Shown here: piece by piece, positions 15,057-36,755 of the stretch
Layout: each line of letters begins with the position of its first letter
How positions within the stretch are numbered: the first letter of the stretch is position 1
DNA from: a virus
Lineage: Duplodnaviria; Heunggongvirae; Uroviricota; Caudoviricetes
DNA: 36,755 nucleotides
IMG/VR virus record: IMGVR_UViG_2778261460_000001
Coordinates: 1 to 36,755 of that record
Strand: one strand, 5' to 3'
Notes under the pieces: model-generated
The model's database searches: none
Told to the model about the DNA's origin: nothing
What the model saw: the letters and a program-made list of their open reading frames with translations, nothing else
Translations under genes and position numbers: made by a program

Positions 15057-15067
15057 AATTACCTCAG

Positions 15068-17768: not shown

Positions 17769-17816
17769 TAATGCTTCCCTTTAAGTTATTACGATGGAAC
17801 AGACCATAGAAATGGC

Positions 17817-17841: not shown

Positions 17842-17860
17842 CAATTATCATCTCGATAAA

Positions 17861-18181: not shown

Positions 18182-18273
18182 GTGTAAAGCCCTTTAAAAG
18201 AGTCACCAAAATCAGGTGCTTTGTATCTATTGGGCCATCACATATCAAATCAAGGAACAAAACAAAGTTAACA

Positions 18274-19712: not shown

Positions 19713-20085
19713 CTGAACCTCCCCGGCGCGTTATGAGCGCCACCAGCGAGCCGATATCCTGATTATTCAGGAACGTCAGGATTTTAACGGCTAAAGCAGA
19801 GACGATTACGGCACCAATAGCATCCAGAGGTTTATCACTGTATCCGGTCAAGTTCGCCAGCTTGGAGCCAACCAACCCAGAGCAAAGAATCCCGGCAATA
19901 TATGACACGATAAAATATGCCAGTCGGCGCGATGCACTCAGATCTGCTGCTGTTGCTATGTAGAATACAGCCCCTGCAAATGCGCCAAATACAACGCCGT
20001 AATCAGTTCCGGTCAGCAGTCCATAAACACTGGCACCCGTCAGGGCACCACCAGCCAGCCCAGTACCGGAAATCGGATCGGACAT
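19699..20085 (-). CDS. Holin-like membrane protein
   Basis: 128-aa Gly/Ala-rich ORF with multiple predicted transmembrane helices, the first membrane gene of the lysis cassette. Confidence 0.45.
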   Translation of the reverse strand: MSDPISGTGLAGGALTGASVYGLLTGTDYGVVFGAFAGAVFYIATAADLSASRRLAYFIVSYIAGILCSGLVGSKLANLTGYSDKPLDAIGAVIVSALAVKILTFLNNQDIGSLVALITRRGGSGGAK

Positions 20086-20164
20086 TTAGCCCCCTCTTAA
20101 TTGCTGTTGGTCCTCTCAGATATGAGGGGAAGGGATCTTAATGACAGTCTGTTTATTATTTCAG

Positions 20165-20422
20165 TCAAATACTACCCTGTTGATGATTTCTCAGAAGCGA
20201 ACTTGACTCCCAGGGGAAACTCAACTTTCCGTTAAAACCACCAGCAGACATTCGTTCAATTTCCACAGAAATATCACTGAGCCGTTCTTCAAGCTCTGCT
20301 TTTTCTTTTACCAGACGGTTATAGCGGCTTAGATGAAGCTTTTGCTGCTCCAGCCAGTCTTCAAGCTGTTCAACAGTCATACCAGGGTTAAAAAAATATG
20401 GCTGCTGCTTTTCGCCCTGCAT
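20165..20422 (-). CDS. Small late-operon protein, unknown function
   Basis: Start revised to the ATG at 20422, which has a GGAGG Shine-Dalgarno 6 nt upstream (plus-strand CCTCC 20429-20433). The track start at 20491 would run through the terminator hairpin. Confidence 0.35.
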   Translation of the reverse strand: MQGEKQQPYFFNPGMTVEQLEDWLEQQKLHLSRYNRLVKEKAELEERLSDISVEIERMSAGGFNGKLSFPWESSSLLRNHQQGSI

Positions 20423-20430
20423 TATTGACC

Positions 20431-20462
20431 TCCAGAAAAGCAAAAACCCCGCCGAAGCGAGG
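20431..20462 (-). terminator. tR'-like terminator downstream of the late promoter
   Basis: On the minus strand: stem CCTCGC / GCGGGG (one G-U pair) with a TTCG tetraloop, followed by a UUUUUGCUUUUCU tract. Located between the Q-like gene and the first late gene. Confidence 0.45.
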
Positions 20463-20572
20463 TTTGTTATGATTTCGTTAACGGCAGACATACAAAGCCC
20501 ATCGTTAGGAGAATCCTAACCATATTTTTTGAAAAATGCAAGCATCATGTCGCCATCTTCGGCGAAAATCAT

Positions 20573-21325
20573 TTATCTTGTCACTTTTCTCAATTGTGTC
20601 TCTGCATATGCTTCTTCCTGCCAGCACTTTGTAACCAGTTTATCAATGACATCTGCATATCCTTTGTACCACTGATAATCCGTCAGGTCCGGTACCAGCT
20701 TCTGGACATGATGCCGCGCCAGTGTGGTTGGTAAACGGCTAAACCGGTTTCCATTGCAACGCCCACAAATCTTATAAACAGGCGCACCATGAAGCCGGGT
20801 TCTTTTTTCATCCAGTACAATACCTTTCCCCTTACACCCTCTACACGCTGTGCTGACTTCTCCCTTACCATGACAATGCTGACATAGTTCCTTCACCCAC
20901 TCTTCCTTGATAACAGATTCCCCGCTTCTGGAGTGTTTCACCACTTCGCGCAATACATTATGAAATCCAGTACCAGCACAATGCTCACAGCGAACCTTAC
21001 TTGCCGCAGACCTGGAATAATCAACAAAGGCAAAATTCACAAGGTAAGGGATGATCTGTAACCGGGTTTCTTCACTCAATTTGTTCAATGTCGGGTTATC
21101 CAGTGCCATCGCGTAATTGAGCAGACCTTCAATCGCAAACTGAGGATCCTGAACACCAACTTTTGCCAGGAATAAGGCAAACCCAAGCGGTGCTTTCGAC
21201 TGCACCATCCCCTGCGCAGCCATCACATCCGTAATTGTTAAACCACCAGAGCCTGTCGCCGGTGCGTCATCGCTCAGTTTTGGAGATTTCGGGGAGTAAT
21301 ATTTCGGTAAGGCTTCAAGGTTCAT
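20573..21325 (-). CDS. Late-gene antitermination protein Q (QuuQ-like, 250 aa)
   Basis: Four CxxCxGxG repeats (CEHCAGTG, CQHCHGKG, CRGCKGKG, CGRCNGNR). Size and position (after the nin-like and methylase genes, before the terminator and lysis cassette) match Q-type antiterminators of E. coli prophages. Confidence 0.65.
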   Translation of the reverse strand: MNLEALPKYYSPKSPKLSDDAPATGSGGLTITDVMAAQGMVQSKAPLGFALFLAKVGVQDPQFAIEGLLNYAMALDNPTLNKLSEETRLQIIPYLVNFAFVDYSRSAASKVRCEHCAGTGFHNVLREVVKHSRSGESVIKEEWVKELCQHCHGKGEVSTACRGCKGKGIVLDEKRTRLHGAPVYKICGRCNGNRFSRLPTTLARHHVQKLVPDLTDYQWYKGYADVIDKLVTKCWQEEAYAETQLRKVTR

Positions 21326-21338
21326 GCTCGTTCTCCAC

Positions 21339-21782
21339 TTACGCCAGTACGCCTATTGCCAGCGCACGATCGATAAAACGAAATATCAGCTCCAGCTGGG
21401 AACCATACTTCTCTTCAAATGCCACGGTATCCGCATGCAGCTCGTCGTGATGCTTTCTGCACAAAGGCAACACAAAGAGGTCATGCGCTTTTGTACCCAT
21501 TCCACCCTGACCGTGGCCTATCAGGTGGTGGGGATCATCAGCGGGCTTTCCACAACATGCACACGGCTGTGTCTTAACCCAGCGCGTGTACTTTTCATTA
21601 ACCCAGCGGCGACGTTTTGGGCGTAACATAAAAGACTCCGGCGACTCCGGATCCACTTTCAGCGCCAGCACCTTTTTCGCCTTATCCTGGATGATGCTGG
21701 TGGCAGGAACCGAAGGCACAAGGTCACTTTCCCGGGTATCCCAGCATGGTTGCCACCTCCTGATTGGTTGGCGGAAAGCCAC
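21339..21782 (-). CDS. DUF968-like Cys/His-rich protein (nin-region)
   Basis: 147-aa ORF with …CACCGKPADDPHHL…LPLCRKHHDELH…, immediately upstream of the Q-like gene. Confidence 0.45.
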   Translation of the reverse strand: MAFRQPIRRWQPCWDTRESDLVPSVPATSIIQDKAKKVLALKVDPESPESFMLRPKRRRWVNEKYTRWVKTQPCACCGKPADDPHHLIGHGQGGMGTKAHDLFVLPLCRKHHDELHADTVAFEEKYGSQLELIFRFIDRALAIGVLA

Positions 21783-21842
21783 GCTCTTTCTGGTAAGAAA
21801 TCAGCATATCCAGCACCTGCTGCTGGCATTGAGTTAACGTCG

Positions 21843-22496
21843 TCATGCCGCCATCTCCCTGACCAGTTTTTCCGCCTGCTGGCGAACCTGCACCAGAAAG
21901 GCTTCACCACATGCCTCAAGTTCATCGCGCCCGATGTAGCTGATTGCCGGTCCCTTCCAGGTCTTGTCGAAAACAGCAATAGCACCAGCGAAGAAAGCGC
22001 CTGTCGGCACCTGCTTCTCATCCTTCGGGATAAACCAGGCAGGCAGTTCAAAACCAATACGCCCGCGAATAAAAGCAATATGGTCCGCATCTTCCGGCCA
22101 CCACACTTCGCTGGTGGCAGCTTTGATCAGGAAAACATAGCGCCCGCCCTTATCACGCATGGCACTGGCATGTTTCATGATGTAACGCATGCCGGTGATG
22201 TATTGCCCCTCATGCTGACTGGCGCGGCTGTATGGGGGATTACCAAAGGCAGCACCTTTAAGCTCCGCAAGACGTTCTGACCAGTCATGCGCCAGCGCGT
22301 TATCTTCCGCCGTGTAATACGCGGCACATTTGGCGTTATCACCGTCAGTAAACAGATCCAGAACAAACGGGCCAAACAGGGTGTTAATTCCCCAGAAAAT
22401 GTTGTCCGGCGTGCGCCACTGATCGCCCACTTCCTTCAGTTCATGGGCTGGTTTGTTCCGCAGTTCTACCAGCGCCTGGCAATATTTATTACTCAT
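21843..22496 (-). CDS. Phage DNA N6-adenine methyltransferase (Dam family)
   Basis: 217-aa ORF with the motif IV signature FGNPPYSRA (NPPY) and an N-terminal SAM-binding-like region. Confidence 0.8.
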   Translation of the reverse strand: MSNKYCQALVELRNKPAHELKEVGDQWRTPDNIFWGINTLFGPFVLDLFTDGDNAKCAAYYTAEDNALAHDWSERLAELKGAAFGNPPYSRASQHEGQYITGMRYIMKHASAMRDKGGRYVFLIKAATSEVWWPEDADHIAFIRGRIGFELPAWFIPKDEKQVPTGAFFAGAIAVFDKTWKGPAISYIGRDELEACGEAFLVQVRQQAEKLVREMAA

Positions 22497-22590
22497 TAAG
22501 CCCCCACGTAAAAAGCATCCGCAATGTCTCCGGAAGTACAGCCCGGATGGGCTTCAATGAATTTCTGAACGTCATTTAACAGACTCATGA

Positions 22591-23583
22591 TCACCCCCTG
22601 AATCCTGCCGGGATCTGGCTGTAGTCCACGTTGTCGTAACTGGCTTTGAAGTACGGGTCTTCACGTTTTTCTGTGTGCGTGCTGACGGACGGCGATAAGC
22701 GCAGGGAAAGCTCATCCCATTTTTCCCGCAACTTCGACGGGCTGAGCACGTTACGGCACCAGAACGGATCGCGGCTGACGCGGCTGTACATCTCGCAGAT
22801 TTGTTTGTGAGTACGACCATCCTGCACACACATCAGGCGAATTTCGTTTGCCCATGCTGTCCAGTTCGGTTCTTTGGGACGAACCACCTCGCCGTCACAT
22901 TCGGCGGCCTGCTCGTACAGGGCGATGATTTTTTTCCAGAGCCACTGTGCGCAGGTCAAATCATCCTGCGTTCCCCACTGGCGCTTTTTAGGGCTGAATA
23001 CAACCGCATCAGGATGGCGAGTTAAAAACTCCTGTTCAGCCGTTTGCGTGTCCGGTTGCGAAGCGTCCGGACGAGAAGAGGTTTTATTCTCTGTAGTAAT
23101 CTCTGTTGTATTCTCTGTAAGATCATTGGGCCATTTTGACCCGATGACAGCGTGTCGTTTTGAACCAATGGATCGTGTCATTTTGCGCCCATCCATCAGG
23201 TCACTTTGACCCGATGGAGAAGTGCATTTTGACCTGATGGATTCGTTCACTTTGACCTCTTCTAAAAGCTCACTTTCATAGTTGATCGTGTAGAAGTTGG
23301 TCATGTCACGCTTCGATTTATTGAGTTGCTCGCGACGCAAAACCCCAAGTGATTTCAGGCTTGCAAATGTGCGTTTCAGAGTGGACTCTGACCAGAACGG
23401 AAACTGCTCCAGCCACTGTTCTGTCGTGTTATAAACCCAGCGAATTCCGCCATGCTCAGTGCCTGAATTCGTTTCATTCAGCCAGTAATGAAGCTGCTGC
23501 AACACAATTGCCTCATTCAGACCAATACGGCATGCAAGATCACGATTTATCACAATGGGCTGGGATGTCATTAACAGGCTCAT
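22591..23583 (-). CDS. Replication initiator protein (lambda O-like), containing the iteron origin
   Basis: 330-aa ORF downstream of the CII-like/Cro genes. It carries six about 23-bp-spaced iterons inside the coding region (23132-23261), as lambda ori does within O. Confidence 0.65.
   Translation of the reverse strand: MSLLMTSQPIVINRDLACRIGLNEAIVLQQLHYWLNETNSGTEHGGIRWVYNTTEQWLEQFPFWSESTLKRTFASLKSLGVLRREQLNKSKRDMTNFYTINYESELLEEVKVNESIRSKCTSPSGQSDLMDGRKMTRSIGSKRHAVIGSKWPNDLTENTTEITTENKTSSRPDASQPDTQTAEQEFLTRHPDAVVFSPKKRQWGTQDDLTCAQWLWKKIIALYEQAAECDGEVVRPKEPNWTAWANEIRLMCVQDGRTHKQICEMYSRVSRDPFWCRNVLSPSKLREKWDELSLRLSPSVSTHTEKREDPYFKASYDNVDYSQIPAGFRG
23132..23261. repeat. Iteron array (putative ori) inside the replication initiator gene
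   Basis: Six direct repeats of consensus YAYTTTGACCYGATG (starts 23132, 23156, 23179, 23201, 23224, 23247), followed by an AT-rich stretch (23257-23300). Confidence 0.6.
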
Positions 23584-23592
23584 GACCGACCT

Positions 23593-23931
23593 CTATTTCC
23601 CTGAATTTACGACGAAACTGTTCGAGCGGACTGAAGCATTCATGTTCATAGCCTTCACGGAGGTAGATAACCCGTTGTGTTTCCGGCTCCCAACGAATGA
23701 CTCTGACGGGCACTCCGTAGTGATCTTTGAACCAGCGGTTAACTTGTCGCAAAGGACTGTCTCCTTCTGCCGGTTGAAATCACCCACAGCCCACTCAGCA
23801 AAGCTGTGGGTTACAATTTCCCTGTCACCTGGTACATTAACTGCATAGCAATACTCCACCTTCGCTTTTCCACCCGGTACAGGAAGCGCAATCAGTTGCG
23901 AGCGACGGTAGTGTGTTGTTAAACTGTTCAT
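23593..23931 (-). CDS. Hypothetical protein (possibly disrupted)
   Basis: 112-aa ORF whose C-terminal third is low-complexity, while an overlapping frame (track ORF 23540..23752) reads protein-like; a 9-bp-stem hairpin lies at 23782-23811. Confidence 0.25.
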
Positions 23932-24524
23932 GCGTTAGTTTCTCCACAGTCACGACACGCCACGGCGCCCGGAGCTGCACACTCGCGGGCGTCATTACTT
24001 TCTGAAATGCAAAAGATTTTGTAGACCAGTGCTGCATGCTCCTGCAGCTTCGAAATTGAGAGATACAGCTCGTCGTTAATTGCTGTCTTCTCATGCGGTT
24101 CCACCACACCGTCTTCGATTGCCGAACGAATCTGTCTGGAATAACTGCCAATCTGTTCAATGACTTCCAGCAGGCGCTGGTTAATATCGGCGTTGTCCAC
24201 ATCCTCGACGTCAGGAAGAGACACAAAGACGCCATTTGCAGACTGCGCCACAGCGTCAGCAATGAAGTGAGTTCCACCAGCACGTTGCAAAATCATTGCC
24301 CATCCCAGCGGGAAAATCTGATCGCCATCGGCACGAAGGCGGTTAAATAATGCGTTTTCTGTTACATCCAGCCAGTCAGCTGCTTCAGCGTAACCACCCG
24401 GCAACGCTGCGATAGTTTTTCTGACAGCTTTCACGTACCACTCAGGCTGTTTTTCTACTTTCCAGTGATGCTTACCCACGGTTAGCCTCATCGTTCTGTG
24501 GTTTCTGTTAATCGATTTATCCAT
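23928..24524 (-). CDS. CII-like phage regulatory protein (CP76-like, about 198 aa)
   Basis: Start revised to ATG 24524 (or 24536), just after the cro stop at 24517; the track start at 24593 would overlap cro by 77 nt. Call is positional (immediately downstream of cro). Confidence 0.4.
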
Positions 24525-24717
24525 TAGATTTTTCATAAAGCTCAGGTTTAAATGGCAACCGTCCGCAAGTTCTATATGCAGCTTCTGCTGCACGTCCTTT
24601 TGGAATTAACTGGCCCGGACGGTTTCGCCACTGATAAACGGCTTCAGTTGTTATGCCGAAAAAAGCAGCAACTTTCTCAATACTGCCGAAGTAGCTTTCG
24701 ATATCGTCAGTTGTCAT
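24517..24717 (-). CDS. Cro-like repressor (HTH DNA-binding protein)
   Basis: 66-aa ORF divergent from the CI-like repressor, with a GGAGGG Shine-Dalgarno upstream and an HTH-like segment (…VAAFFGITTEAVYQWRN…). Confidence 0.65.
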   Translation of the reverse strand: MTTDDIESYFGSIEKVAAFFGITTEAVYQWRNRPGQLIPKGRAAEAAYRTCGRLPFKPELYEKSNG

Positions 24718-24814
24718 ACGCCCTCCAAACTAAGTTTTATTAGATGCTAATTACAAATCTATCTTTGGTCAATAAAAACTAAGATTACTTAGCAATTCAA
24801 GAAATGGTGCTCCT
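24718..24814. promoter_or_regulatory. Divergent immunity-region promoter/operator region (OR-like)
   Basis: 97-bp AT-rich spacer between divergent cro and cI. Contains a perfect palindrome CTAAGATTACTTAG (24779-24792), a related site ACTAAGTTTTATTAG (24729-24743), and a TTGACC -35-like hexamer on the cro strand. Confidence 0.5.
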
Positions 24815-25441
24815 ATGGAAACGGTTGGTCAGCGTATAAAAGCTCTGAGAAGAGTTACCGGAACGTCCCAGAAAGAATTGGGTAAATTTTGTGGAGTAAG
24901 CGACGTTGCTGTGGGGTACTGGGAGAAAGACATCAATACCCCTGGTGGGGAGGCACTTTCGAAATTAGCGAAGTTCTTCAATACGTCAATAGATTACATT
25001 CTTTATGGTGCTGAGTTTGAAGGCAAACTCGTCACAAACATGCGCAGAGTTCCTGTAATATCGTGGGTTCAGGCTGGGCAGTTTACTGAGTGCAGGGCAG
25101 CAGAAGTGTTTAGTGAAGTGGACAAGTGGGTAGATACATCATTAAAGATTGGTGATAACTCATTTGCATTAGAGGTTAAAGGTGACTCCATGACTAACCC
25201 TAATGGCCTCCCAACAATACCAGAAGGCGCAACAGTGATTGTAGATCCAGATGCAGAACCTCGTCATGGAAAAATAGTCATCGCTCGACTTGATGGAACA
25301 AACGAAGCTACAGTAAAAAAATTAGTCATCGATGGCCCTCAAAAGTTTTTAGTGCCATTAAATCCTCGGTATCCCAACATCCCTATCAATGGTAATTGCC
25401 TTATCATTGGTGTAGTCAAAGGAGTTCAATACGAACTCTAA
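24815..25441 (+). CDS. CI-like prophage repressor (HTH plus LexA/S24 peptidase domain)
   Basis: 208-aa ORF with an N-terminal HTH (…QKELGKFCGVSDVAVGYWEKD…) and a C-terminal S24 autocleavage domain with Ser-Lys dyad context (…EVKGDSMTNP…ATVKKLV…). Confidence 0.85.
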   Translation: METVGQRIKALRRVTGTSQKELGKFCGVSDVAVGYWEKDINTPGGEALSKLAKFFNTSIDYILYGAEFEGKLVTNMRRVPVISWVQAGQFTECRAAEVFSEVDKWVDTSLKIGDNSFALEVKGDSMTNPNGLPTIPEGATVIVDPDAEPRHGKIVIARLDGTNEATVKKLVIDGPQKFLVPLNPRYPNIPINGNCLIIGVVKGVQYEL

Positions 25442-25647
25442 GACCTCTCTTCTCTAACTAAGGCACCGAACTAAGAAAAGCTTGGTGTTTTCTCTTGCCA
25501 TAATAACTAAGTTAAGTTAGATTTTATATCAAAGATAACGAACAGGCAGGACGCCCACGAAGTAGCCGCCTGGGGCATATGAAGTCCAGGATGATTCGTT
25601 GAGTCATGTTGTGCCACCAGGCACTCATGTTAAAGCAGGTGTATGAA

Positions 25648-25923
25648 ATGAAAGTCCAGATTTTAAACAATAACTGTGAAGTCGTTTGGTCATACGACAT
25701 AGCCGCCCCTGTAGATCAGAGCGGCGATAGCTGGACCAATGGGAAACATCAGATTATGGCTGGAGTTGTGTTCTCTTTACGCCGTGCTTTGGAACAGGCT
25801 GAAGTATTTCCATCAGACCCTGAATGGAAATGGCCTTTTTCTATTTGTCCAAATTCGGAGAGCACATTTCAGAAAATTGGTCAGAAAGTCGCACTCGAAG
25901 AGCATCAGCCAACTGTTTCCTGA
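25648..25923 (+). CDS. Hypothetical early-left protein
   Basis: ATG at 25648 with AGGTG 6 nt upstream (the track ORF begins at 25606). The 3' end overlaps a convergent ORF. Confidence 0.3.
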   Translation: MKVQILNNNCEVVWSYDIAAPVDQSGDSWTNGKHQIMAGVVFSLRRALEQAEVFPSDPEWKWPFSICPNSESTFQKIGQKVALEEHQPTVS

Positions 25924-26086
25924 TTTTTTCAGGTAACTCGTCGGCATCGCAGAAACAACAACGCTCGATCATGTTGAAAGCCGATTCGTAGAACTGTTTC
26001 TGCTGAGTGTCGCTGAGACAGGAAAAGAGCGACGTTACGATGATTTTATTAATTGCATTATCAAGTTCTTTTTCATCAAAAGTCAT
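25841..26086 (-). CDS. Hypothetical protein (AT-rich, convergent)
   Basis: 81-aa ORF with an AGGAAA Shine-Dalgarno upstream of the ATG at 26086 and low GC; its 3' end overlaps the plus-strand ORF by 83 nt. Confidence 0.3.
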   Translation of the reverse strand: MTFDEKELDNAINKIIVTSLFSCLSDTQQKQFYESAFNMIERCCFCDADELPEKIRKQLADALRVRLSDQFSEMCSPNLDK

Positions 26087-26600
26087 TTGATTTTCCTTTT
26101 ATGTATACGGGCTTAAAAGGATACCACCGAGCCTGAAGTGGTGAAAAGACAGGCACATAACAGCTAAGTATTTTCAACCAGAGAGAATCCTTAGCGTTGT
26201 GGTGAATGCGGCTCAGCGCACGCGGGTTAAGGTTGAGGCTGACAGTCGACCTTCTGTGGATACCCACCCGCCTGGTGTGCAACCTTCGCCAGGCACCGGG
26301 AGGCACCCGGCACCACAACTTTATGCTGAGTGTAGTCCTGGCGGTACCAGCTTGTACCCTTGCTTCCGGCTGGTACCGTCCTTTTTACAAAACAGAGAAG
26401 AGCATCACCGGACGACGGGCTCATAACCCAATCCATCCGGGCGGCGGTCACCGCAGGTGTTCTTCTCTGTTTTGTGGAGAAACTAACCGCCCCTGCGGGG
26501 GCATTTATGGAAATGTAATTGACTCAATAATCGCCGGACGGTGAGGGCTTCCTTTTACCCGAATTCAGCGCGGTGCAGCGCATATAACGTGGAGAACAAA

Positions 26601-27137
26601 ATGTCATTTATTAAAACTTTTTCCGGGAAGCATTTTTTTTATGACCGGATAAATAAAGACAACATCGATATTAACGATATCGCGGTTTCACTTTCAAATA
26701 TCTGCCGCTTTGCAGGACATCTTTCACACTTCTACAGCGTCGCCCAACATGCGGTGCTTTGCAGCCAGCTGGTACCGCACGAATTTGCTTTTGAAGCATT
26801 AATGCATGATGCAACAGAAGCGTATTGCCAGGACATCCCCGCTCCACTGAAACACCTTCTTCCTGACTATAAACGGATGGAAGAAAAAATAGACGCCGTA
26901 ATCCGTGAGAAATACGGGTTACCCCCGGTTATGAGTACACCCGTGAAATATGCCGATCTCATCATGCTGGCAACCGAACGCCGCGATCTCGGGCTTGATG
27001 ATGGCTCTTTCTGGCCTGTGCTGGAAGGTATCCCGGCAACAGAGATGTTCAACGTGATTCCACTGGCTCCAGGCCATGCCTACGGGATGTTTATGGAACG
27101 CTTTAACGAATTATCGGAGTTACGCAAATGCGCATGA
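26601..27137 (+). CDS. HD-domain phosphohydrolase
   Basis: Start revised to ATG 26601 with GGAG 6 nt upstream. Contains H…HD metal-binding motifs (…SVAQHAVLCS…EALMHDATEAYCQD…). Confidence 0.65.
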   Translation: MSFIKTFSGKHFFYDRINKDNIDINDIAVSLSNICRFAGHLSHFYSVAQHAVLCSQLVPHEFAFEALMHDATEAYCQDIPAPLKHLLPDYKRMEEKIDAVIREKYGLPPVMSTPVKYADLIMLATERRDLGLDDGSFWPVLEGIPATEMFNVIPLAPGHAYGMFMERFNELSELRKCA

Positions 27138-27490
27138 ATGTTTTCGAAATGGAAGGGTTTCTTCGCGGGAAATGTGTACCGCGAGATCTGAAAGTGAACG
27201 AAACAAATGCTGAGTACCTGGTACGTAAATTCGACGCGCTTGAAGCTAAATGTGCGGCACTGGAAAGCAAAATAATACCAGTGTCAGCTGAACTGCCTCC
27301 AGCAAATGAAAGTGTTCTGTTATTTGATGCTAACGGAGAAGGCTGGCTGATTGGCTGGCGTTCTCTCTGGTACACCTGGGGACAAAAAGAAACCGGAGAA
27401 TGGCAGTGGACATTTCAGGTCGGGGACCTTGAAAACGTCAATATCACTCACTGGGCAGTAATGCCGAAAGCACCAGAGACTAAGAAATGA
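27128..27490 (+). CDS. Hypothetical protein (Trp-rich C-terminus)
   Basis: 120-aa ORF overlapping the HD gene stop by 10 nt. Trp-rich C-terminal segment (…WLIGWRSLWYTWGQKETGEWQWTF…). Confidence 0.4.
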   Translation: MRMNVFEMEGFLRGKCVPRDLKVNETNAEYLVRKFDALEAKCAALESKIIPVSAELPPANESVLLFDANGEGWLIGWRSLWYTWGQKETGEWQWTFQVGDLENVNITHWAVMPKAPETKK

Positions 27491-27702
27491 GCGTGATAAA
27501 AACTCATACAGGAATTGTTATCACCCGAGACGGTGAAAAGCGGATGAAATTACATTCCACTGAAACGTCCTGGGTTGCCGGACGTTGTGAATCCTACGAC
27601 AAAAAGACTGGTTACCGTTGGGGTGCACCTAACATGCGTCGCCGTCTGCTACTGGACAGCATCAGGCTAATAAAACAAGTAGCAACCAGAGAACAAAATT
27701 AA
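27487..27702 (+). CDS. Hypothetical small protein
   Basis: 71-aa ORF whose start overlaps the upstream stop by 4 nt (translational coupling). Confidence 0.35.
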   Translation: MSVIKTHTGIVITRDGEKRMKLHSTETSWVAGRCESYDKKTGYRWGAPNMRRRLLLDSIRLIKQVATREQN

Positions 27703-27749
27703 TTATCAGGACTGGAATTTGATATTACTGCCCATGTGCAGCGGGCTAA

Positions 27750-27968
27750 GTGGAGAAACATATGCTGAACCTCGATTGTGTTCCTATCTCAACTTATTGC
27801 AAAGAAACTGGCGAAACTCCTGAAGCAATAAACAAACGTGTACAGCGCGGTGTTTGGCGTGAAGGTGTTCAGGTTTTAAAGGTTGAAGGCGTTAAGGAGA
27901 GGTGGATTGATCTTAGTGAGGTTGCAAAATGGGCCAGACAAAACTGCTCAAACTACCGCGCGGCGTAA
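27750..27968 (+). CDS. Excisionase-like protein (putative Xis)
   Basis: 72-aa ORF immediately upstream of and overlapping the integrase start. Confidence 0.45.
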   Translation: MEKHMLNLDCVPISTYCKETGETPEAINKRVQRGVWREGVQVLKVEGVKERWIDLSEVAKWARQNCSNYRAA

Positions 27969-29099: not shown

Positions 29100-29118
29100 G
29101 GCGGCATTTATTGCCGCC
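29100..29118. terminator. Hairpin between convergent genes
   Basis: GGCGGCA-TTTAT-TGCCGCC, a 7-bp perfect stem directly after the integrase stop and overlapping the stop of the convergent membrane-protein gene. Confidence 0.4.
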
Positions 29119-29737
29119 CACATAATTCATTATGCCATTTATCCAAGTAACAATCCAATTGTTTTAATGTTTTCAATACATATACAGGCTTACGTGGAGG
29201 ATGATTTTTTTGAAAAGAATCATATAAATGCATTATGAAATCGACACAAGCACTAGATACATTCTGAGCGCGAAAAACCCTATATGACTTATTAAAACAA
29301 TATGATTTCTCACATTCCATAGTAGCTTCATCTATAATATTAGAAAAATACGAAATTGTTATTTTTATCCCCCTCTCATCGAGAAGATTAATGTATTTAT
29401 TTATTTGTATGGCTTTTCCATGAATTGCCGTTAAATATATTTTCGCCGACTGAGTATGCAATCCATTAGAGTTCTTAAAACTTTTTTTCTTAAATGGATT
29501 AGAATCTGGTGGTATTGACTTATTAACCCAGTAATCCAGAGACAAATCTGATATTTCGTTTAAAATTTTAGCAATCGCATCTATAATCGATTTAGATTCA
29601 GAGCGAGTAGCAATCTTCAGTGAATTATTGTAAGTAACAAACCATCCAATAAACACTAAGATAATACTCACAACACTAAACATCCATGCGTAAGTGGACA
29701 CCCCTGCAAGGGTGTCCTTAATATCAACGGTGTTCAA
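29108..29737 (-). CDS. Membrane protein, third gene of the GHKL/STAS operon (candidate effector)
   Basis: A hydrophobic segment (YAWMFSVVSIILVFIGWFVTY) predicts one transmembrane helix. Start is ambiguous: the track start at 29821 is a GTG with no Shine-Dalgarno and an 83-nt overlap, whereas a TTG at 29737 sits 5 nt after AGGAG and 2 nt after the upstream stop; an ATG at 29683 is also possible. AT-rich. Confidence 0.45.
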   Translation of the reverse strand: MNTVDIKDTLAGVSTYAWMFSVVSIILVFIGWFVTYNNSLKIATRSESKSIIDAIAKILNEISDLSLDYWVNKSIPPDSNPFKKKSFKNSNGLHTQSAKIYLTAIHGKAIQINKYINLLDERGIKITISYFSNIIDEATMECEKSYCFNKSYRVFRAQNVSSACVDFIMHLYDSFQKNHPPRKPVYVLKTLKQLDCYLDKWHNELCGRQ

Positions 29738-29738
29738 A

Positions 29739-30080
29739 TCAACTCCTTTGGAAAGGCTTCCTTTCTGGATTAGCCATTTCAATATATCTAAAAATTTGAT
29801 CTTTATAGAACGGCAAATCACTTTTTATAATTAGTTTTGCCTTAATGTCAGCCTTAGGTACACCTTCCTTCCTAACAAGCCCTCCAAAGGCCTCCTCTAG
29901 AAACGAAGAACCAATCCCATGATTTATACCCGTAAAATCTACGACAACCTCACGCTCACCAGATTTTAATGCAGGAACCAGAAAGTCCTTACGAAAACGC
30001 TCAGCACTGTTCGGGCTGTCAGACTTGAACCTTCCAAATGGCATCTTTGAGAAATCCCTTGCTATGACGATGTTAACCAT
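29739..30080 (-). CDS. STAS-like (DUF4325-like) small protein
   Basis: 113-aa ORF with a strong Shine-Dalgarno (GGAGAGGAGAAG) that overlaps the upstream ATPase stop by 8 nt. The segment …EVVVDFTGINHGIGSSFLEEAFGGL… resembles STAS/anti-sigma-antagonist-like folds. Confidence 0.5.
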   Translation of the reverse strand: MVNIVIARDFSKMPFGRFKSDSPNSAERFRKDFLVPALKSGEREVVVDFTGINHGIGSSFLEEAFGGLVRKEGVPKADIKAKLIIKSDLPFYKDQIFRYIEMANPERKPFQRS

Positions 30081-30996
30081 CTTCTCCTCTCCTCGGAACT
30101 AATGACCATTCAATCAATGTTCCCGGCATGTACTCAGGTATCCACTCGCATTTGGGAACCTCATTTCTTGAATTATAGCTGTACTTAACATTCCCTGTGA
30201 ACACCAAAAGTGATTCTGAATTCGCACAGCCAGACCCTATAGGTCTCTTTATATCCTCAGAACCATTACCACGTCCAGCGTTAACATATCTGGACTGTCC
30301 TCCTGTCAGGGCTGTTGACACAGATGTCACGTCGTCATACCCAGTAAACAACGGAGAGGCTGAAGTAAATGATTTATGTATGCCAAGCCCAAGATCATAA
30401 ATAATAAAGACAACCTTGTCTGTGTCAGGGTTGTACCAACAACTCTGCCACCATCGTTTCCCTTGCATATGCTCTGTAGCACCAGCAAAGTCTGGATGTT
30501 CATATGCATGATATGAAACATTCAGCATTGCCTCACTAAGGGCTGAGGAGACCAAAAGATATTGCTCAAATGTGAGAATTGCTTTTGAATCAATAAATTC
30601 CATCGTTTTAGCCCAATGTTCATACGGTTCCACAGCAGACTGAAAGTACCTGCGTTCCTTAGTAAGAACATCTAATTTATCAACTGTATTTGCCATTAGA
30701 GCAATCGATAACCCCGTCCCAACAATATATCGATGCCCATACGGATTATTTTCTTTTTTCGGCCAAATAAATCGAAGACTACTTGTGCCGAATGCCATAA
30801 AATAAGCCCTACTGATGATAGCAAACAACCTTACGCTAGCTGCAGCACCTGCATATTCTACTGTCGAAAAGTCTATAACCACTTGTCCAGATGCTCTCGC
30901 AAGGGTGTTATCAACTGAGTTCAAAAACTTAGCTGTAACACGGCGATCAGAATCATTATAAAGGCACAATCTTTTTGGGGAAATCAACAGTTCCAT
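30073..30996 (-). CDS. GHKL-family ATPase / kinase-like protein (HATPase_c-type)
   Basis: 307-aa ORF with a GAGGTG Shine-Dalgarno. Bergerat-fold motifs appear in canonical order and spacing: N-box (LSEAMLNVSYHA), G1 (IYDLGLGIH = DxGxG), G2 (GRGNGSEDI = GxGxG). There is no H-box, so it is not a classical histidine kinase. Confidence 0.6.
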   Translation of the reverse strand: MELLISPKRLCLYNDSDRRVTAKFLNSVDNTLARASGQVVIDFSTVEYAGAAASVRLFAIISRAYFMAFGTSSLRFIWPKKENNPYGHRYIVGTGLSIALMANTVDKLDVLTKERRYFQSAVEPYEHWAKTMEFIDSKAILTFEQYLLVSSALSEAMLNVSYHAYEHPDFAGATEHMQGKRWWQSCWYNPDTDKVVFIIYDLGLGIHKSFTSASPLFTGYDDVTSVSTALTGGQSRYVNAGRGNGSEDIKRPIGSGCANSESLLVFTGNVKYSYNSRNEVPKCEWIPEYMPGTLIEWSLVPRRGEDG

Positions 30997-31137: not shown

Positions 31138-31167
31138 ACGCGGGTTCAACTCCCGCCAGCTCCACCA
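31138..31167 (+). other. ssrA: tmRNA (ssrA) 3'-terminal fragment, putative integration core (att)
   Basis: ACGCGGGTTCAACTCCCGCCAGCTCCACCA matches the T-arm plus acceptor 3' strand plus CCA of enterobacterial tmRNA. Upstream sequence is not tmRNA, so this is a duplicated 3' end, not the gene. Confidence 0.7.
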
Positions 31168-31332
31168 CTTTTTAGTTGTTTGAAGTTCAATGAAGTCTAC
31201 TAAGCCCACACAGCACAAGCTCTGCGGGCTTTTTTACGTCTATTGTCGTCCAGTGAGAATTGCTGAGAACTACGAGTTATGGCACCCTGAATGGGACCCA
31301 CTAAGAAGGGTCCAAAAACCGAGGGTCCCAAA

Positions 31333-32562
31333 ATGGCAAAAATCGCTAAGAAGCTCACTGACACTGAAATCAAAAGCACCAAGCCAGCCGATAAAGAAAT
31401 CAACTTGTTTGACGGTGATGGTCTGATTCTACGAATCGCTCCTTTGGCGAAAGGAGGCAAGAAAAATTGGTATTTCAGGTATGCAGTACCAGTGAGCAAG
31501 AAAAGAACCAAAATGAGCCTTGGGACATATCCTCACCTTACCCTTGCAAGAGCCAGAGCCTTACGTGATGAATATCTCTCCTTTCTGGCAAATGGTGTTG
31601 ATCCCCAAATCCATAACAACGATAAGGCGAAGGCATTAAAGAGTGCTACTGAGCACACTCTCCAAGCCGTAGCGCGGAAATGGTTAGATGAGAAGGTAAA
31701 GACATCAGGTATCTCACAAGACCATGCAGCAGACATCTGGCGCAGCTTAGAGAGAAATGTCTTTCCCGGTCTGGGTAATGTCCCTATCAATGAGATCCGA
31801 CCTAAGCTCTTAAAACAACACCTTGATCCTATTGAGCAACGAGGCGTATTGGAAACTCTACGCCGTATCATTTCACGTCTGAATGAAATCTTCCGGTGGG
31901 CAGCTACTGAAGAACTTATTGAGTTCAACCCGGCTGACAACCTTGGTCAAAGATTCAGTAAACCAAAAAAGCAAAATATGCCTGCCCTTCCCCCAAGCGA
32001 ATTGCCAAGGTTTATGGAATCTTTGACGAATGCGTCAATCCGGTTGGAAACACGTATGCTAATTGAATGGCAATTGTTGACATGGGTTCGTCCGGGTGAA
32101 GCCGTTCGCGCAAGGTGGTCTGATATTGATACAACCAACAGCATTTGGAACATTCCTGCTGATTTCATGAAAATGAAAAAGCTTCACAAAGTTCCTTTGA
32201 GTAAAGAAGCTTTGCGCATCCTTGAATTAATGAAATCAATAAGTGGGCATAGAGAATGGGTTTTCCCCAGCATAAAAGCGCCTCTTAATCATATGCATGA
32301 ACAAACAGCCAACGCAGCTATCATCCGAATGGGGTTCGGAGGCGAGCTTGTAGCTCACGGTATGCGTTCTATTGCACGAACAGCGGCAGAGGAGTCTGGT
32401 AAATTCAGAGCTGAAGTTCTTGAGGCAGCGCTTGCCCACTCGAAAAAAGATGAAATTATCGCAGCATACAATCGTGCAGAATATCTGATAGAGCGACAGA
32501 GTTTGATGCAATGGTGGAGTGATTACGTTCAAGCTCAAAGATCAAATGCTCTGGTAGCCTAA
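31333..32562 (+). CDS. P4-type (CP4-57-like) tyrosine integrase
   Basis: Start set to ATG 31333 with GAGGG upstream (the track ORF begins at 31291). The N-terminus (MAKIAKKLTDTEIKSTKPADKEINLFDGDGLILRIAPLAKGGKKNWYFRY) is the P4-integrase-family signature, and a C-terminal catalytic region follows (…HGMRSIARTAAEE…AHS…Y…). It sits about 165 nt downstream of the ssrA fragment on the same strand. Confidence 0.85.
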   Translation: MAKIAKKLTDTEIKSTKPADKEINLFDGDGLILRIAPLAKGGKKNWYFRYAVPVSKKRTKMSLGTYPHLTLARARALRDEYLSFLANGVDPQIHNNDKAKALKSATEHTLQAVARKWLDEKVKTSGISQDHAADIWRSLERNVFPGLGNVPINEIRPKLLKQHLDPIEQRGVLETLRRIISRLNEIFRWAATEELIEFNPADNLGQRFSKPKKQNMPALPPSELPRFMESLTNASIRLETRMLIEWQLLTWVRPGEAVRARWSDIDTTNSIWNIPADFMKMKKLHKVPLSKEALRILELMKSISGHREWVFPSIKAPLNHMHEQTANAAIIRMGFGGELVAHGMRSIARTAAEESGKFRAEVLEAALAHSKKDEIIAAYNRAEYLIERQSLMQWWSDYVQAQRSNALVA

Positions 32563-32600: not shown

Positions 32601-33017
32601 ATGGAAACCCTATTCAAAGTTTTTGAAAAATTTAGTTCCAGACCACTTTTTTTTATTTTTTTCGGACTCTCACTTTGTGAATTTTTTCAGAAACAATCTG
32701 TTCTGATGAATCCATCAGCAGATAACATCGCGAAATTATTCGCAGCCATGATATTAGTTGTTTTTTTTACTTGGGGATTTGAATGGCTAATCTTCAAGTT
32801 CAATGTAAACCTTGAACCTCATGATCAAGGCGATATTGGACCAACAATTGGAACGGCTACTTTAGCTGTATACTTAGTTTATGCCTTTCACTTTCTCAGT
32901 GAAAATCCTGAAGCATTAAATTTAAAGTTATTAACTAACTCTGGCTTTATATACAGCACAACTCTATTATTATTCTCATTAGAATGCATGAAGCTTAGAA
33001 GACTTAAACAAAAATAA
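32601..33017 (+). CDS. Small multi-pass membrane protein
   Basis: 138-aa AT-rich ORF with 3 to 4 predicted transmembrane helices and an AAGGTAAAG Shine-Dalgarno-like sequence upstream; convergent with the receiver-effector gene. Confidence 0.4.
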   Translation: METLFKVFEKFSSRPLFFIFFGLSLCEFFQKQSVLMNPSADNIAKLFAAMILVVFFTWGFEWLIFKFNVNLEPHDQGDIGPTIGTATLAVYLVYAFHFLSENPEALNLKLLTNSGFIYSTTLLLFSLECMKLRRLKQK

Positions 33018-33088
33018 ACAACATCATTGTGATGATAAATATAAAATAGGCATGGCGAAAAAAAATCACCACGCCTAAAATATAATAA

Positions 33089-34855
33089 TTATGGTAGCAT
33101 CATTGATACATAATCCACACCAATCCTTGAGCTATACTGAGACGCTATAGCCTGATATCTTTCTGCATAACCAGTTCTCAGTTGAGATTTAAGTTTGAGT
33201 CGGACAGGAACATTTTGCACGTTGCCATCCATATTACTTAAAAACACGGCAGAAATAATATTTTTTTCTTCGCCATCAACTGTTGTTCCATGATTCAACA
33301 CCACCATATAATCAACAACAGGAAGCGTTTTATCCCCTTCGAAAATAGAGAGATATTTTCTTTGATTTTTATGCATTACATATATATATTTCGAATGTTC
33401 AGCAAATGGCAATGCTTTACTCTGACTGGCGTTAAAAAGCTCCAGAACTTTAATGAGCCTGTGCGGACTTAATCTTACATGGTGAGGGTCGTTACCCTGA
33501 GTAGGAACCAAATCACATGCCGCAGATACACATAAATACCATTTGTTCGACTCTGTATCAAAGAAAATAGTGCCAGTAGAAATATGACCATCTTCAAAAT
33601 TCTTTGAAGACAAATTCATATTTAAAGCATGATACATTTCGTGATAAGTATCATTATTTGATGGCAGATCCATTTTTGAAGAGCAATATTGGAGCAATGC
33701 AGCAACTCCGCTGTTAGCGTATTCATTTGAATAGCTATCAAAAACACTTTTGATAAATTCATCCAGCGTATTATTATTTTTAAGTCTTTGATAAAGCTCT
33801 TCTGATAAATTACCAAATACAAAGTCAATATTTCTACATCTAATATCAGGCGAGTCTGATTTTAATATCTCATTTAACCACGCAGCTTGACCGTAATGAT
33901 CGTTAGCCAAATGATTTACAAAAGATAAAGCCTCAGCTTCGATTGCATTCTGAATTTCAGATTTTATTAACTGATAATAAGATGGTTTCCATTCAATGAG
34001 AGAATCATTGAGAGTTTGCCAAATCCTATCTCCATCGTTTTCATGATCATCTTGAACCTTATGAAATAGGGAGACAAAGATATTACCACATTGAATCCAT
34101 TTTACTCCGCTTTCATCACCCCGAATGACATTGCCAGATGTGTTGCTAGAAATAATTGCATTTCTAGACACAGCATATTCTGCAATCATTTTTGCAATGA
34201 AGTTTTTATCCTTTTGATCCTCCAACACAGCATCATCATGTATTAATCTTTTAATTCTTCTACAAGGCTTACTGTCTTTAATATAGGCTATTGTTTCATC
34301 TCTTGTGAGAGCTTTATTACCATTATCATTTAAGTTCGGTAATACAACGTCTTCCCAATAACTTTGGACATCTTCATTATCGTAGTCAATGATCAAGCTG
34401 TTGATATCCAGAGCACCTTTGAGAGTCGATGATATCTGCATCCAAACCGTTTCTAAATTCTCTCTAGTATATATTACAATCATATTTAAATGATCGGAGT
34501 CTTTCAAATCTTGTAATAGTTTAAGTGTTTTATCAGGTGCATTATTATCAAGATGATAATCTACAATAATAAGATCTGATTTCCTAATCCGATCCACACC
34601 GAAATTAACAGAACCATTGTCAACATCACAAATCATATTTTTAGATTGAAAAAAGCTCTCAAGAGTAGCGGCTCGTTTAGATGAGTCAATTTTGTTGTAG
34701 TCTAAATCAACTTCGTTATTCAACGCCCTGATTGATTCAGAATACGTCAGAAAATCGTCATCAATCATGACAACGGAACGAATTGCATTTTCGCAGAAAG
34801 TTTTCTGGACAAGAGAATTATAATTTGCCACTGTCATATTAGAACTCCACTCCAT
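33089..34855 (-). CDS. Receiver (REC)-like domain protein with a large uncharacterised C-terminal domain (candidate effector)
   Basis: N-terminal receiver-like landmarks: acidic pocket (VVMIDDDF), candidate phospho-acceptor Asp (SDLIIVDYHL) and the conserved Thr region (MIVIYT), followed by about 400 aa with no motif I recognise. An alternative start at ATG 34837 has a GGAGTGGAG Shine-Dalgarno. It overlaps the upstream kinase gene stop. Very AT-rich. Confidence 0.55.
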   Translation of the reverse strand: MEWSSNMTVANYNSLVQKTFCENAIRSVVMIDDDFLTYSESIRALNNEVDLDYNKIDSSKRAATLESFFQSKNMICDVDNGSVNFGVDRIRKSDLIIVDYHLDNNAPDKTLKLLQDLKDSDHLNMIVIYTRENLETVWMQISSTLKGALDINSLIIDYDNEDVQSYWEDVVLPNLNDNGNKALTRDETIAYIKDSKPCRRIKRLIHDDAVLEDQKDKNFIAKMIAEYAVSRNAIISSNTSGNVIRGDESGVKWIQCGNIFVSLFHKVQDDHENDGDRIWQTLNDSLIEWKPSYYQLIKSEIQNAIEAEALSFVNHLANDHYGQAAWLNEILKSDSPDIRCRNIDFVFGNLSEELYQRLKNNNTLDEFIKSVFDSYSNEYANSGVAALLQYCSSKMDLPSNNDTYHEMYHALNMNLSSKNFEDGHISTGTIFFDTESNKWYLCVSAACDLVPTQGNDPHHVRLSPHRLIKVLELFNASQSKALPFAEHSKYIYVMHKNQRKYLSIFEGDKTLPVVDYMVVLNHGTTVDGEEKNIISAVFLSNMDGNVQNVPVRLKLKSQLRTGYAERYQAIASQYSSRIGVDYVSMMLP

Positions 34856-36557
34856 TGAACTGGATCACAAAATTAGCGCCATCTTTTATTAAATAGTTAT
34901 CGCCTTCATCAGGTTCTGAATACCATATTTTATGATGTGCAACAGCAAGGTTTTCTCGACATAGATACAGACCTACCCCATGTCCATTTGCTCTTTTGCT
35001 ATAAAATAGTTCAAATAGTCGCGGGATATCATCGGTATCAATTGCCGGACCAGAATTTGCTATGATAACCAAAGAATTCACAAAACCAATCTTTATGAGC
35101 CTATTATTTGACAGACTGACCCAATACATTGCATTGTTGATAATATTAGTAAAAACAGGATAGATCCTTGATGGTATATCTGTTATTGCGATTTGCTTAA
35201 ACTCTTCACTAAATTCAATAGTTATTCGTTGCCGTTCGAAACGCTCCCCAAAGAACTTCAGGACATAATCCATGATATTTTTTCCAGTTATTCTCTGCCT
35301 GGATTGATAACCTGATATTTTCAAAGGTGATAAGAAACGTATTTGTTGAGTAAGCGATCTGTGAGCATTTAACGCCAATGAAAAACCAGGGTGTTCTTTT
35401 ACAGAAGTAGGAAGAGAGTTTAGTCCTCTGGTTACCATAGAATCCATTTCTTCAAGTTCATGAGATATTATCTCAACACTAATACCTAACTGTGCAAGCG
35501 CGTTTAAACTTTTAGCTTTTTCTTCAAAATATGAGCGTTCTTCTTCAGATAATGAGAATGCTGAATCTAAGTTTATACCTTCAAATAATCTATCGAGACC
35601 TTTTATTATTGATTGATATTTGAAAGTTAGGGTATCAACTGACTCAACATATAAACTATCGAGCAAATTAAACACATTTTCAATTTGTGAATCATTATCT
35701 ATTGAATCAACAACTGATATAGTTTTAGCATAATAATCACTTCGATCAACCTTTATTTCATCGGCCCATTTTTTTAAAAGAGAATGTATCTTCTCCTCTA
35801 TCGTGTTATTAAACTTAGTTAGTTTAGAATTAATAATACCTTGATTTTTTTCAAGGTGATTTTTCGCTGACAATGAAGGCTCAAGTTTATTTAATTCAGA
35901 ATCAAGTTTATTAATTGCTAACTTCATTTGTAGAATATACGCAGAGAACTCATTAAATTTATCTCTGTAGTCTCTATATTTCTCTTCATACATTCCAAGT
36001 TTTGGAGGTTTGATAGGCGTTTTAATTTCACTGCGCAACGCATCTAAGTTTGTAAGATCACTGTCTATAATTTTAAGATAGTTTAAATCTAACGAACCAT
36101 CAGTTTTATCAAGCTTAGTTTTCAGCCTTTTAACAGCCTCCAAGGAAGCATCAAGAACTGGTGTCTGATTCTTCAAAGCTTCTGAAAAACTTTTTTGTGT
36201 TGATTTTCGAGCTTGTTGTTGAGCAGATTTTCTTAACTCTTTTTCACGCTTAACTTGTTCTAAAAGCTCTTTACGGTCATCAGAACGTGAACCAAAAAAT
36301 CTATCAGCAAGTTCAGTTAACAAATTAGATATAATAGTTTTCAGTTCTCTTGCAGCCTGGTTTCTTATGAATCCCTCTCTCCCCGACTTATCTTTCAGCT
36401 CTTTATTACTGGATTGAGTAATTCCAATATAACCAAAAATCCTTCTATTAGACCAATAATATCGCCCTGCATTCCATGAACGTCTTTCTTCTATCTGGAA
36501 GAAATCATTATCTACTCGACCATAAGGTAATACTCTCAAGCTATCCCTAAAAATCAT
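34839..36557 (-). CDS. Histidine-kinase-like protein (HisKA-type H-box plus HATPase_c), cytoplasmic, possibly 5'-truncated
   Basis: H-box-like (…LAQLGISVEIISHELEEM…), N-box (FTNIINNAMYW) and G2 (ANGHGVGLYL), with no transmembrane segments and a long helical N-terminal region. The reading frame stays open upstream of the ATG at 36557 right up to the IS3 terminus at 36679. Confidence 0.65.
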   Translation of the reverse strand: MIFRDSLRVLPYGRVDNDFFQIEERRSWNAGRYYWSNRRIFGYIGITQSSNKELKDKSGREGFIRNQAARELKTIISNLLTELADRFFGSRSDDRKELLEQVKREKELRKSAQQQARKSTQKSFSEALKNQTPVLDASLEAVKRLKTKLDKTDGSLDLNYLKIIDSDLTNLDALRSEIKTPIKPPKLGMYEEKYRDYRDKFNEFSAYILQMKLAINKLDSELNKLEPSLSAKNHLEKNQGIINSKLTKFNNTIEEKIHSLLKKWADEIKVDRSDYYAKTISVVDSIDNDSQIENVFNLLDSLYVESVDTLTFKYQSIIKGLDRLFEGINLDSAFSLSEEERSYFEEKAKSLNALAQLGISVEIISHELEEMDSMVTRGLNSLPTSVKEHPGFSLALNAHRSLTQQIRFLSPLKISGYQSRQRITGKNIMDYVLKFFGERFERQRITIEFSEEFKQIAITDIPSRIYPVFTNIINNAMYWVSLSNNRLIKIGFVNSLVIIANSGPAIDTDDIPRLFELFYSKRANGHGVGLYLCRENLAVAHHKIWYSEPDEGDNYLIKDGANFVIQFNGVEF

Positions 36558-36678: not shown

Positions 36679-36755
36679 TGATCCTACCCACGTAATATGG
36701 ACACAGGCCTAAGCGAGGTTCTTGTTTTCAAATTGTTCCGGACTGAGGCCGCCAC
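36679..36755 (-). mobile_element. IS3-family insertion sequence, terminal inverted repeat and transposase (orfB) 3' end (partial)
   Basis: The terminus TGATCCTACCCACGTAATATGGACACAGGCC at 36679 matches the IS3 inverted repeat as I recall it. The minus strand encodes the transposase C-terminus …GGLSPEQFENKNLA-stop (stop at 36709-36711). The element continues past the window end. Confidence 0.65.

Follow-up and report, generated by a model that had tools for sequence, protein, structure and literature searches.

The 30 nucleotides at 31138-31167 (+) of the window, by which we mean the whole 36,755-nt stretch of DNA analysed here, very probably represent the 3' end of the tmRNA gene ssrA, displaced by the site-specific integration of a temperate phage into ssrA upstream of a P4-type island. 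The fragment is not a gene but the scar of a recombination event, and it constitutes an att site (attR when ssrA is read forward). It appears to be the distal att site of the SfIV/SfV-like prophage to its left, with the integrase at 27929-29095 and three cargo genes, because relatives show independently assorting flanks as well as empty and occupied sites. The window is organized as follows.

1..27749, mostly minus strand: SfIV/SfV-like prophage body with myovirus tail, HK97-type head, lysis and lambdoid regulation (nucleotide identity)
27762..27968, plus strand: candidate excisionase, 68 aa, directly upstream of and overlapping the prophage integrase (open reading frame; homology to the xis-int of phage phiNP)
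27929..29095, plus strand: prophage tyrosine integrase, 388 aa, not of P4 type (Pfam Arm-DNA-bind_2, Phage_int_SAM_5, Phage_integrase)
29108..30996, minus strand: three-gene cargo between integrase and att core, GC 35-42% (Pfam, PHROG)
29108-29737, minus strand: cargo protein, 209 aa, with a predicted membrane segment
29739-30080, minus strand: cargo protein, 113 aa, DUF4325 STAS-like (Pfam DUF4325, E 8e-15)
30073-30996, minus strand: cargo protein, 307 aa
31077..31087, plus strand: candidate arm-type integrase binding site GATACGCAAAG, 51-61 nt upstream of the core (repeat in the attP arms)
31138..31167, plus strand: displaced ssrA 3' fragment, integrase-proximal att core copy of the prophage and junction with the island (identity, uniqueness, flank assortment)
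31168..31235, plus strand: island leader with a rho-independent terminator, stem 31203-31231 and T-run 31230-31235 (terminator scan)
31333..32562, plus strand: P4-type (IntA-like) tyrosine integrase, 409 aa (Pfam Arm-DNA-bind_3, Phage_int_M, Phage_integrase)
32601..36557, mixed strands: island cargo of three genes, GC 32-39% (Pfam and composition profile)
32601-33017, plus strand: hypothetical protein, 138 aa
33089-34837, minus strand: Response_reg_2 (PF19192) protein (Pfam)
34839-36557, minus strand: HEF_HK/HATPase_c histidine-kinase-like protein (Pfam)
36679..36755, no strand assigned: terminal part of an IS3 element that truncates the island and extends past the window end (terminal sequence TGATCCTACCCACG...)

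The fragment reads ACGCGGGTTCAACTCCCGCCAGCTCCACCA and is identical in all 30 bases to the final 30 nt of E. coli ssrA, which comprise the T-arm, the 3' acceptor strand and the terminal ACCA. The 363-nt ssrA annotated in E. coli EC43 served as the reference. Counted back from the CCA end, the identity extends over exactly 30 nt to 31138 and is broken at 31137, where the window has ...AATCAT and ssrA has ...TTTCGG ahead of the shared ACGCGGG. The earlier note had proposed such a match from the letters of the window alone, and the alignment bears it out without a single mismatch. Even when three mismatches are tolerated, the window contains the 30-mer only once. No match was found in 100 dinucleotide-preserving shuffles of the window, which rules out a chance match; none is expected by chance.

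Searches for a gene at the fragment were negative. ARAGORN detects no tRNA or tmRNA gene in the 36.7-kb window, and an Rfam scan of the window returns zero matches at the gathering threshold. The tmRNA model (RF00023), run in the E-value mode of Rfam, reaches 20.4 bits against a gathering score of 47, with a convincing alignment only at the T stem-loop (GCGGG-TTCAACT-CCCGC), the 3' acceptor strand and ACCA. A complete tRNA-like domain, a tag reading frame, pseudoknots and a score at gathering, by which a tmRNA gene is judged, are all lacking, and just the 3' 30 nt align. Because ssrA is missing its 5' 333 nt here and phage DNA abuts at 31137, the fragment is a copy of the att core rather than the gene, as the earlier note had held.

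Related genomes provide both states of the site. Strain 503025 represents the empty site, with smpB, an intact ssrA, 165 nt and then the same integrase and island. Its intact ssrA runs without a break into the island, with 100% identity to the window from 31138 to the last position. Occupied sites are found in EC43 and CFSAN064035, where smpB-ssrA is followed by a prophage, an identical 30-nt copy and the same island. The order in EC43 is smpB, ssrA, a restriction endonuclease, a Dcm-type methyltransferase, a GIY-YIG protein, pinE, tail, head and regulation, and then int, cargo, the 30-nt copy and the island. A search for further copies of the 3' core, as the earlier note had advised, was run in the window and in EC43 and recovers exactly two cores in the EC43 interval, ~41 kb apart, with the intact ssrA at the tail-fibre end. 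CFSAN064035 has the same layout with a lambda-like prophage body, but with the window's own int and cargo. Examined as a displaced fragment, the 30-mer thus combines identity to the host-type tmRNA 3' end (30/30 against E. coli ssrA), a tyrosine integrase inside the interval (27929-29095) and an unoccupied site with coinciding break points (strain 503025); an intact ssrA in the same orientation at the other end of the element is seen in EC43 and CFSAN064035, the closest relatives. By analogy with these two genomes, the intact ssrA of the present genome would lie upstream of window position 1, past the tail-fibre end, in line with the expectation of the earlier note that the gene is located outside the window.

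The sequences on either side of the core occur in different combinations. The window and the distal copy in CFSAN064035 have the cargo flank left of the core and the island leader right of it. Strain D5 has the identical cargo flank on the left, joined on the right to a CP4-57-type leader that equals the one of K-12 across the 90 nt compared. The ssrA body is found on the left in 503025, followed by the island leader, and in K-12, followed by the CP4-57 leader. The copy within the intact gene of EC43 and CFSAN064035 also has the ssrA body on the left, with the phage arm ATCATGATTGGACGG... on the right, and the distal copy of EC43 joins a different (DarT/NADAR) cargo flank to the island leader. 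Left and right flanks therefore appear to assort independently, switching exactly at both edges of the 30-mer, as predicted by a shared recombination core. The recombination of flanks at these edges also sustains the earlier assignment of the prophage and its three-gene cargo to the left of the fragment and of the island to the right. Among complete E. coli genomes, none matches the whole window, the best covering 78% of window 12000-36755. In the genomes with 100% identity around the junction (H1-H6), int and cargo are those of the window, and the body of the prophage is another, lambda-like one.

The junction is not restricted to E. coli. Photorhabdus heterorhabditis SF41 (1329-4014) has a displaced ssrA fragment with the identical 30-nt left boundary, an integrase ~75 nt upstream of it that shares 78% amino acid identity with the prophage integrase of the window, and past the fragment a P4-type integrase with 92% protein identity to that of the window. 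Such a two-integrase junction in Photorhabdus points to a wide host range of both elements across Enterobacterales. A scan of species-representative genomes for the island leader yielded 17 loci, and in 10 of these (Enterobacterales) the leader stands behind an intact tmRNA gene. The Superficieibacter leader locus holds a 36-nt fragment with one mismatch, and that of Salmonella diarizonae a degenerate ~14-nt copy (...CACGCCAGCCACCA) followed by the same leader.

The prophage body shows ~80% coverage and ~97% identity to Shigella phages SfIV/SfII/SfV and Escherichia phage vB_EcoM-720R4. It is collinear with the ssrA prophage of EC43 from window position 53 on, and its tail-fibre end extends past window position 1. 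The xis-int stretch shares 83.9% nucleotide identity with the two genes annotated as xis and int in Citrobacter phage phiNP, and the product of 27762-27968 probably functions as an excisionase. Of 5426 complete E. coli genomes, 412 contain the prophage integrase gene (at least 90% nucleotide identity). Its likeness to P4 Int is confined to a 69-residue stretch.

We suggest a history in two steps. The ancestor would have carried smpB-ssrA followed directly by the P4-type integrase island, like 503025 today, and the island would later have lost its far end. An SfIV/SfV-like phage, with a copy of the last 30 nt of ssrA in its attP, would then have integrated as the tyrosine integrase encoded at 27929-29095 recombined attP with the T-arm region of ssrA (attP x attB). 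Integration would have rebuilt a complete ssrA at the tail-fibre end, outside the window, with the phage arm supplying a new terminator, and would have pushed the old ssrA 3' end, the island leader with its terminator and the island ~40 kb downstream. The arm behind the rebuilt ssrA does contain a terminator (AAAAGCCCGCTTATGCGGGCTTTTT, ~130 nt past the CCA), and the old one would remain with the displaced fragment. Excision by Int/Xis would restore ssrA without sequence change, because both core copies are identical. The phage flank left of the core ends in ...AATTCAATCAT, and the excised attP junction would accordingly read ...AATTCAATCAT, the 30-mer, ATCATGATTGG.... The island most likely arrived first, by parsimony, because it adjoins intact ssrA in prophage-free strains, is widespread, is without a distal att and is now immobile.

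The crossover probably took place in or near the T-loop. The identity block begins 2 nt before the T stem, and T stem halves around a 7-nt loop are, as Williams is said to have set out in 2002, the usual core-type arrangement for the T-arm sublocation. The 11-mer GATACGCAAAG occurs once per arm and in direct orientation, at 31077-31087 and 93 nt after the core, in an attP reconstructed from the left arm of the window, the core and the right arm of CFSAN064035. Near-identical variants of the 11-mer are kept in the otherwise unrelated cargo flank of EC43 and in the phiNP arm. The repeats are plausible candidates for arm-type sites bound by the Arm-DNA-bind_2 domain.

The P4-type integrase lies 165 nt downstream of the fragment in the same orientation, as is classic for a tDNA and its int, and this could mean that the 30-mer is the attL of the P4-type island alone, with the prophage located at an adjacent unrelated site or in an attB borne by the island. 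E. coli phages integrating into attB carried by other prophages are documented (PMC8112680), and the att of CP4-57 in K-12 consists of the last ~14-15 nt of ssrA (psaA). However, the same phage flank and core stand beside a different island in D5, and the island leader stands behind intact ssrA in 503025, so that the left edge of the 30-mer is linked to the phage rather than to the island. In relatives the other prophage end abuts intact ssrA with an identical 30-nt core, and an identity block of 30 nt is twice the ~14-15 nt of the CP4-57 type. This flank-swap comparison largely refutes a fragment belonging to the island alone, which we consider very unlikely. A leftover of a second or of the original ssrA, with the 5' part lost by deletion or rearrangement, would suit a region that is rich in IS elements and deletions and has an IS3 deletion junction 5.5 kb downstream. 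Yet the break point is the same to the nucleotide in unrelated genomes, even in Photorhabdus, and lies just where identity to the core of the intact gene stops. The interval also holds the matching integrase, and a random deletion would not repeat one end point. The recurrent exact break point rules out a deletion-derived ssrA pseudogene, and this origin is hardly credible.

The fragment, leader and terminator might also be expressed as a small RNA, like IsrM of Salmonella, with a regulatory role beyond that of a scar. The Rfam IsrM model (RF02763) matches 31105-31235 (+) with an E-value of 1.8e-16, nearly all of the score coming from the ~95 nt between the end of the ssrA fragment and the terminator, and the leader matches the 3' ~95 nt of the model. 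Leader and terminator are also highly conserved across genera. The match nevertheless scores just 61.9 bits where gathering requires 376, and it skips 214 nt of the model body, so the locus falls outside the family. No promoter-like site was found in 30900-31400, and no match to IsrM at gathering in the leader loci of Salmonella diarizonae, Dryocola, Photorhabdus and Superficieibacter. The conservation of the leader is explained by its role behind the intact gene, as terminator of ssrA and upstream region of the integrase. A regulatory RNA is thus exceedingly improbable, and it is highly improbable that lysogens produce a distinct small RNA from 31138-31235, akin to the 3' module of IsrM. If this were true, a phage inserting at ssrA would leave not just a scar but also a new regulatory RNA. 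Displacement by phage integration remains the reading that we prefer. As a separate observation, the 3' ~95 nt of IsrM correspond to a degenerate ssrA 3' end, the leader of the P4-type island and the terminator, which suggests that IsrM itself is located at an equivalent junction of ssrA fragment and P4-type integrase.

The island leader stands directly behind intact ssrA in prophage-free strains and is orphaned here behind the fragment. It equals the sequence after the intact ssrA of 503025 across the 90 nt compared. The P4-type integrase begins at 31333, 165 nt past the CCA and on the same strand, as the earlier note had stated, and the PGAP annotation of 503025 gives the same spacing (ssrA end 6030, int start 6196). 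All three Pfam domains of the protein score above their cut-offs, which gives the domain architecture of the type (Arm-DNA-bind_3, or DUF4102, at the N-terminus, Phage_int_M in the centre and the catalytic tyrosine recombinase domain last), and the NCBIfam model PRK09692 reaches 440.6 bits, narrowly above its cut-off of 434. The protein shares 48% identity with IntA of K-12 (408 columns) and 34% with P4 Int over 416 aligned columns, nearly the full length (E 2e-82). The Response_reg_2 and HEF_HK/HATPase_c genes of the island form a tight pair (33089-36557, minus strand, GC 32-35%) that neither PADLOC nor NCBIfam names. In GenBank AJ304858 this pair is labelled only 'hypothetical' and 'histidine kinase-like'.

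The far end of the island is truncated. An inverted-repeat search for IS3 ends detected nothing at the default seed, and the IS3 end was found by its terminal sequence. From 36679 on, TGATCCTACCCACG... leads into an annotated IS3 transposase in relatives. In 503025, the IS3 (11542-12799) has island DNA on one side and the middle of ygaQ on the other. These flanks and the lack of a target-site duplication are the signature of an IS-associated deletion, and the island ends at this deletion junction in ygaQ. AJ304858 has no IS3, and the same two flanks are joined there with 'CG' replacing 'AGATAA'. The island in EC43 and 503025 consists of int, three genes and the IS3 only, followed by a ygaQ pseudogene without its N-terminus and then glaH. 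Compared to K-12, both strains miss a stretch between ssrA and ygaQ with ypjA, pinH, ypjB, ypjC and ileY. Neither the remainder of the window nor the 45 kb downstream in EC43 yielded a correctly oriented distal att of the island. The search tolerated up to 8 mismatches for the 30-mer, up to 2 for 16-mers and, for a 15-mer, up to 2 errors including indels; as a positive control, a search allowing up to 2 errors recovered the 14-nt psaA of K-12. Because no distal att copy is present, the island appears to be an immobile, truncated remnant that still has its integrase.

These losses affect how the stacking of the two elements is named. Islander/TIGER (Hudson, Lau and Williams 2015, PMC4383910) delimits islands by a regenerated tDNA and a displaced fragment, the signature being a 3' fragment that points the same way as the tDNA and is separated from it by an integrase, and the tmRNA gene is the most enriched target (PMC4383910). 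A tandem array requires a fragment and an integrase for each member (PMC4383910). In the window each member has its own integrase, and the two (27929-29095 and 31333-32562) are unrelated. The island as second member has no displaced fragment of its own, in contrast to an Islander tandem array, and the prophage appears to be the only element still flanked by two cores. The proposal of a junction between two integrative elements in tandem occupancy of ssrA therefore stands for the history and for the two integrases, but the element on the right is a remnant without a distal att. Tandem occupancy is historically right and falls short of the formal rule (PMC4383910), because the prophage alone retains an att site at each end.

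The gap between the prophage integrase and the att core appears to be a variable cargo slot. It holds three genes in the window, DarT and a NADAR antitoxin in EC43, an AAA ATPase and an unannotated ORF with methyltransferase-like motifs in phiNP, and only ~75 nt in Photorhabdus. The three cargo genes of the window are assigned to PHROG families 3364, 5816 and 30059, each without known function. PADLOC matched no defence system to the three genes, and neither NCBIfam nor PADLOC gave anything significant for them or for the two large genes of the island. The sole PADLOC match is a weak '2TM effector' (E 0.0024), obtained for the third cargo ORF in its longest, 237-aa version. Searched against PDB sequences, the 307-aa protein yielded noise only. 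The same protein has a sub-threshold match to HATPase_c_2 (SpoIIAB-like; E 0.028, residues 139-207), and GHKL-like motifs (DLGLG, GRGNG) are visible by eye. The DUF4325 STAS-like protein aligns to the C-terminus of PHROG 5816 (positions 340-438 of 441), which suggests that the 307-aa and DUF4325 proteins are fused in other phages. Together, the two proteins seem to resemble a partner-switching kinase/antagonist pair. The three genes may constitute an uncharacterised defence or exclusion module.

The ssrA-proximal end of the prophage, outside the window, carries in relatives a type II restriction endonuclease, a Dcm-type cytosine methyltransferase and a LEM-3-like GIY-YIG protein. All three genes are present in EC43 (42991-46844) and CFSAN064035 (546-4402), on different phage bodies (myovirus and lambda-like), and the stretch compared in D5 (21-794) starts at the GIY-YIG gene. 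Judging from these genes in relatives, both ends of the element are likely to carry defence-type cargo.

The closest known locus is GenBank AJ304858 (2005), the ssrA locus of E. coli O111:H- strain 1639/77 with the cryptic Stx1 prophage CP-1639, a prophage credited to Creuzburg et al. 2005, Microbiology 151:941 where it is cited in PMC2713265 and PMC13596339. The order is the same, with recN-smpA-smpB-ssrA, the prophage, a 'remnant integrative element', a truncated ygaQ (b2657) and csiD. The remnant comprises intA, a hypothetical gene and response-regulator-like and histidine-kinase-like genes, the same genes as in the island of the window, and its integrase is 91.9% identical to that of the window over the 87% of the protein that aligns. 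CP-1639 differs by being a lambdoid Stx1 prophage riddled with IS629, with an ssrA-side arm of different sequence, by a truncated intA and by the lack of an IS3 between island and ygaQ. Phage phiNP of Citrobacter rodentium (OR565852) is likewise a myovirus with lambdoid regulation, similar in its int-xis region (83.9% nucleotide identity), and has an ssrA 3' core flanked by a homologous arm, with cargo between int and core. It differs in an ssrA identity of 36 nt with one mismatch, in its cargo and in its host genus. The phiNP record starts and finishes with a copy of the core, as if a prophage sequence had been trimmed at its two cores.

CP4-57 of K-12 shares with the island a P4-type IntA (48% identical) just past the ssrA CCA and a terminator-bearing leader of its own. 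It has a short ssrA 3' copy (attR 'psaA') at its far end, whereas the P4-type element of the window is without a far end. CP4-57 is also complete and excisable, with an imperfect core of just ~14-15 nt. Because of this imperfect core, its excision deletes U357 of tmRNA and inactivates the molecule (PMC10107115). The stacking in K-12 is reversed, with CP4-57 next to ssrA and a ~150-nt remnant of a phage arm together with pinH beyond psaA. The ~150 nt past the 14-nt psaA share 91.6% identity with the arm that follows the intact ssrA of EC43-type lysogens, and pinH has 80.7% nucleotide identity to pinE of the EC43 prophage (positions 25473-25637 and 30654-30793 of the K-12 stretch, respectively). 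Downstream of CP4-57, K-12 thus seems to retain a scar left by a member of this family of ssrA prophages.

The arrangement is ordinary and already described (AJ304858, 2005), at a well-known integration hot spot. Integration hot spots at tRNA and tmRNA genes, displaced 3' fragments as boundaries and stacked elements at ssrA are all established, and our understanding of them is unchanged. Williams, in 'Traffic at the tmRNA gene' of 2003, reportedly covered tDNA islands and tandem arrays at this gene. The finding is of use for annotation, because the 30-mer fixes to the nucleotide where the prophage ends on the right. It also shows the three low-GC genes to be phage cargo rather than island genes, and the island downstream to be immobile. 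Since both core copies are identical, loss of the prophage should leave tmRNA intact, unlike the excision of CP4-57 in K-12 (PMC10107115).
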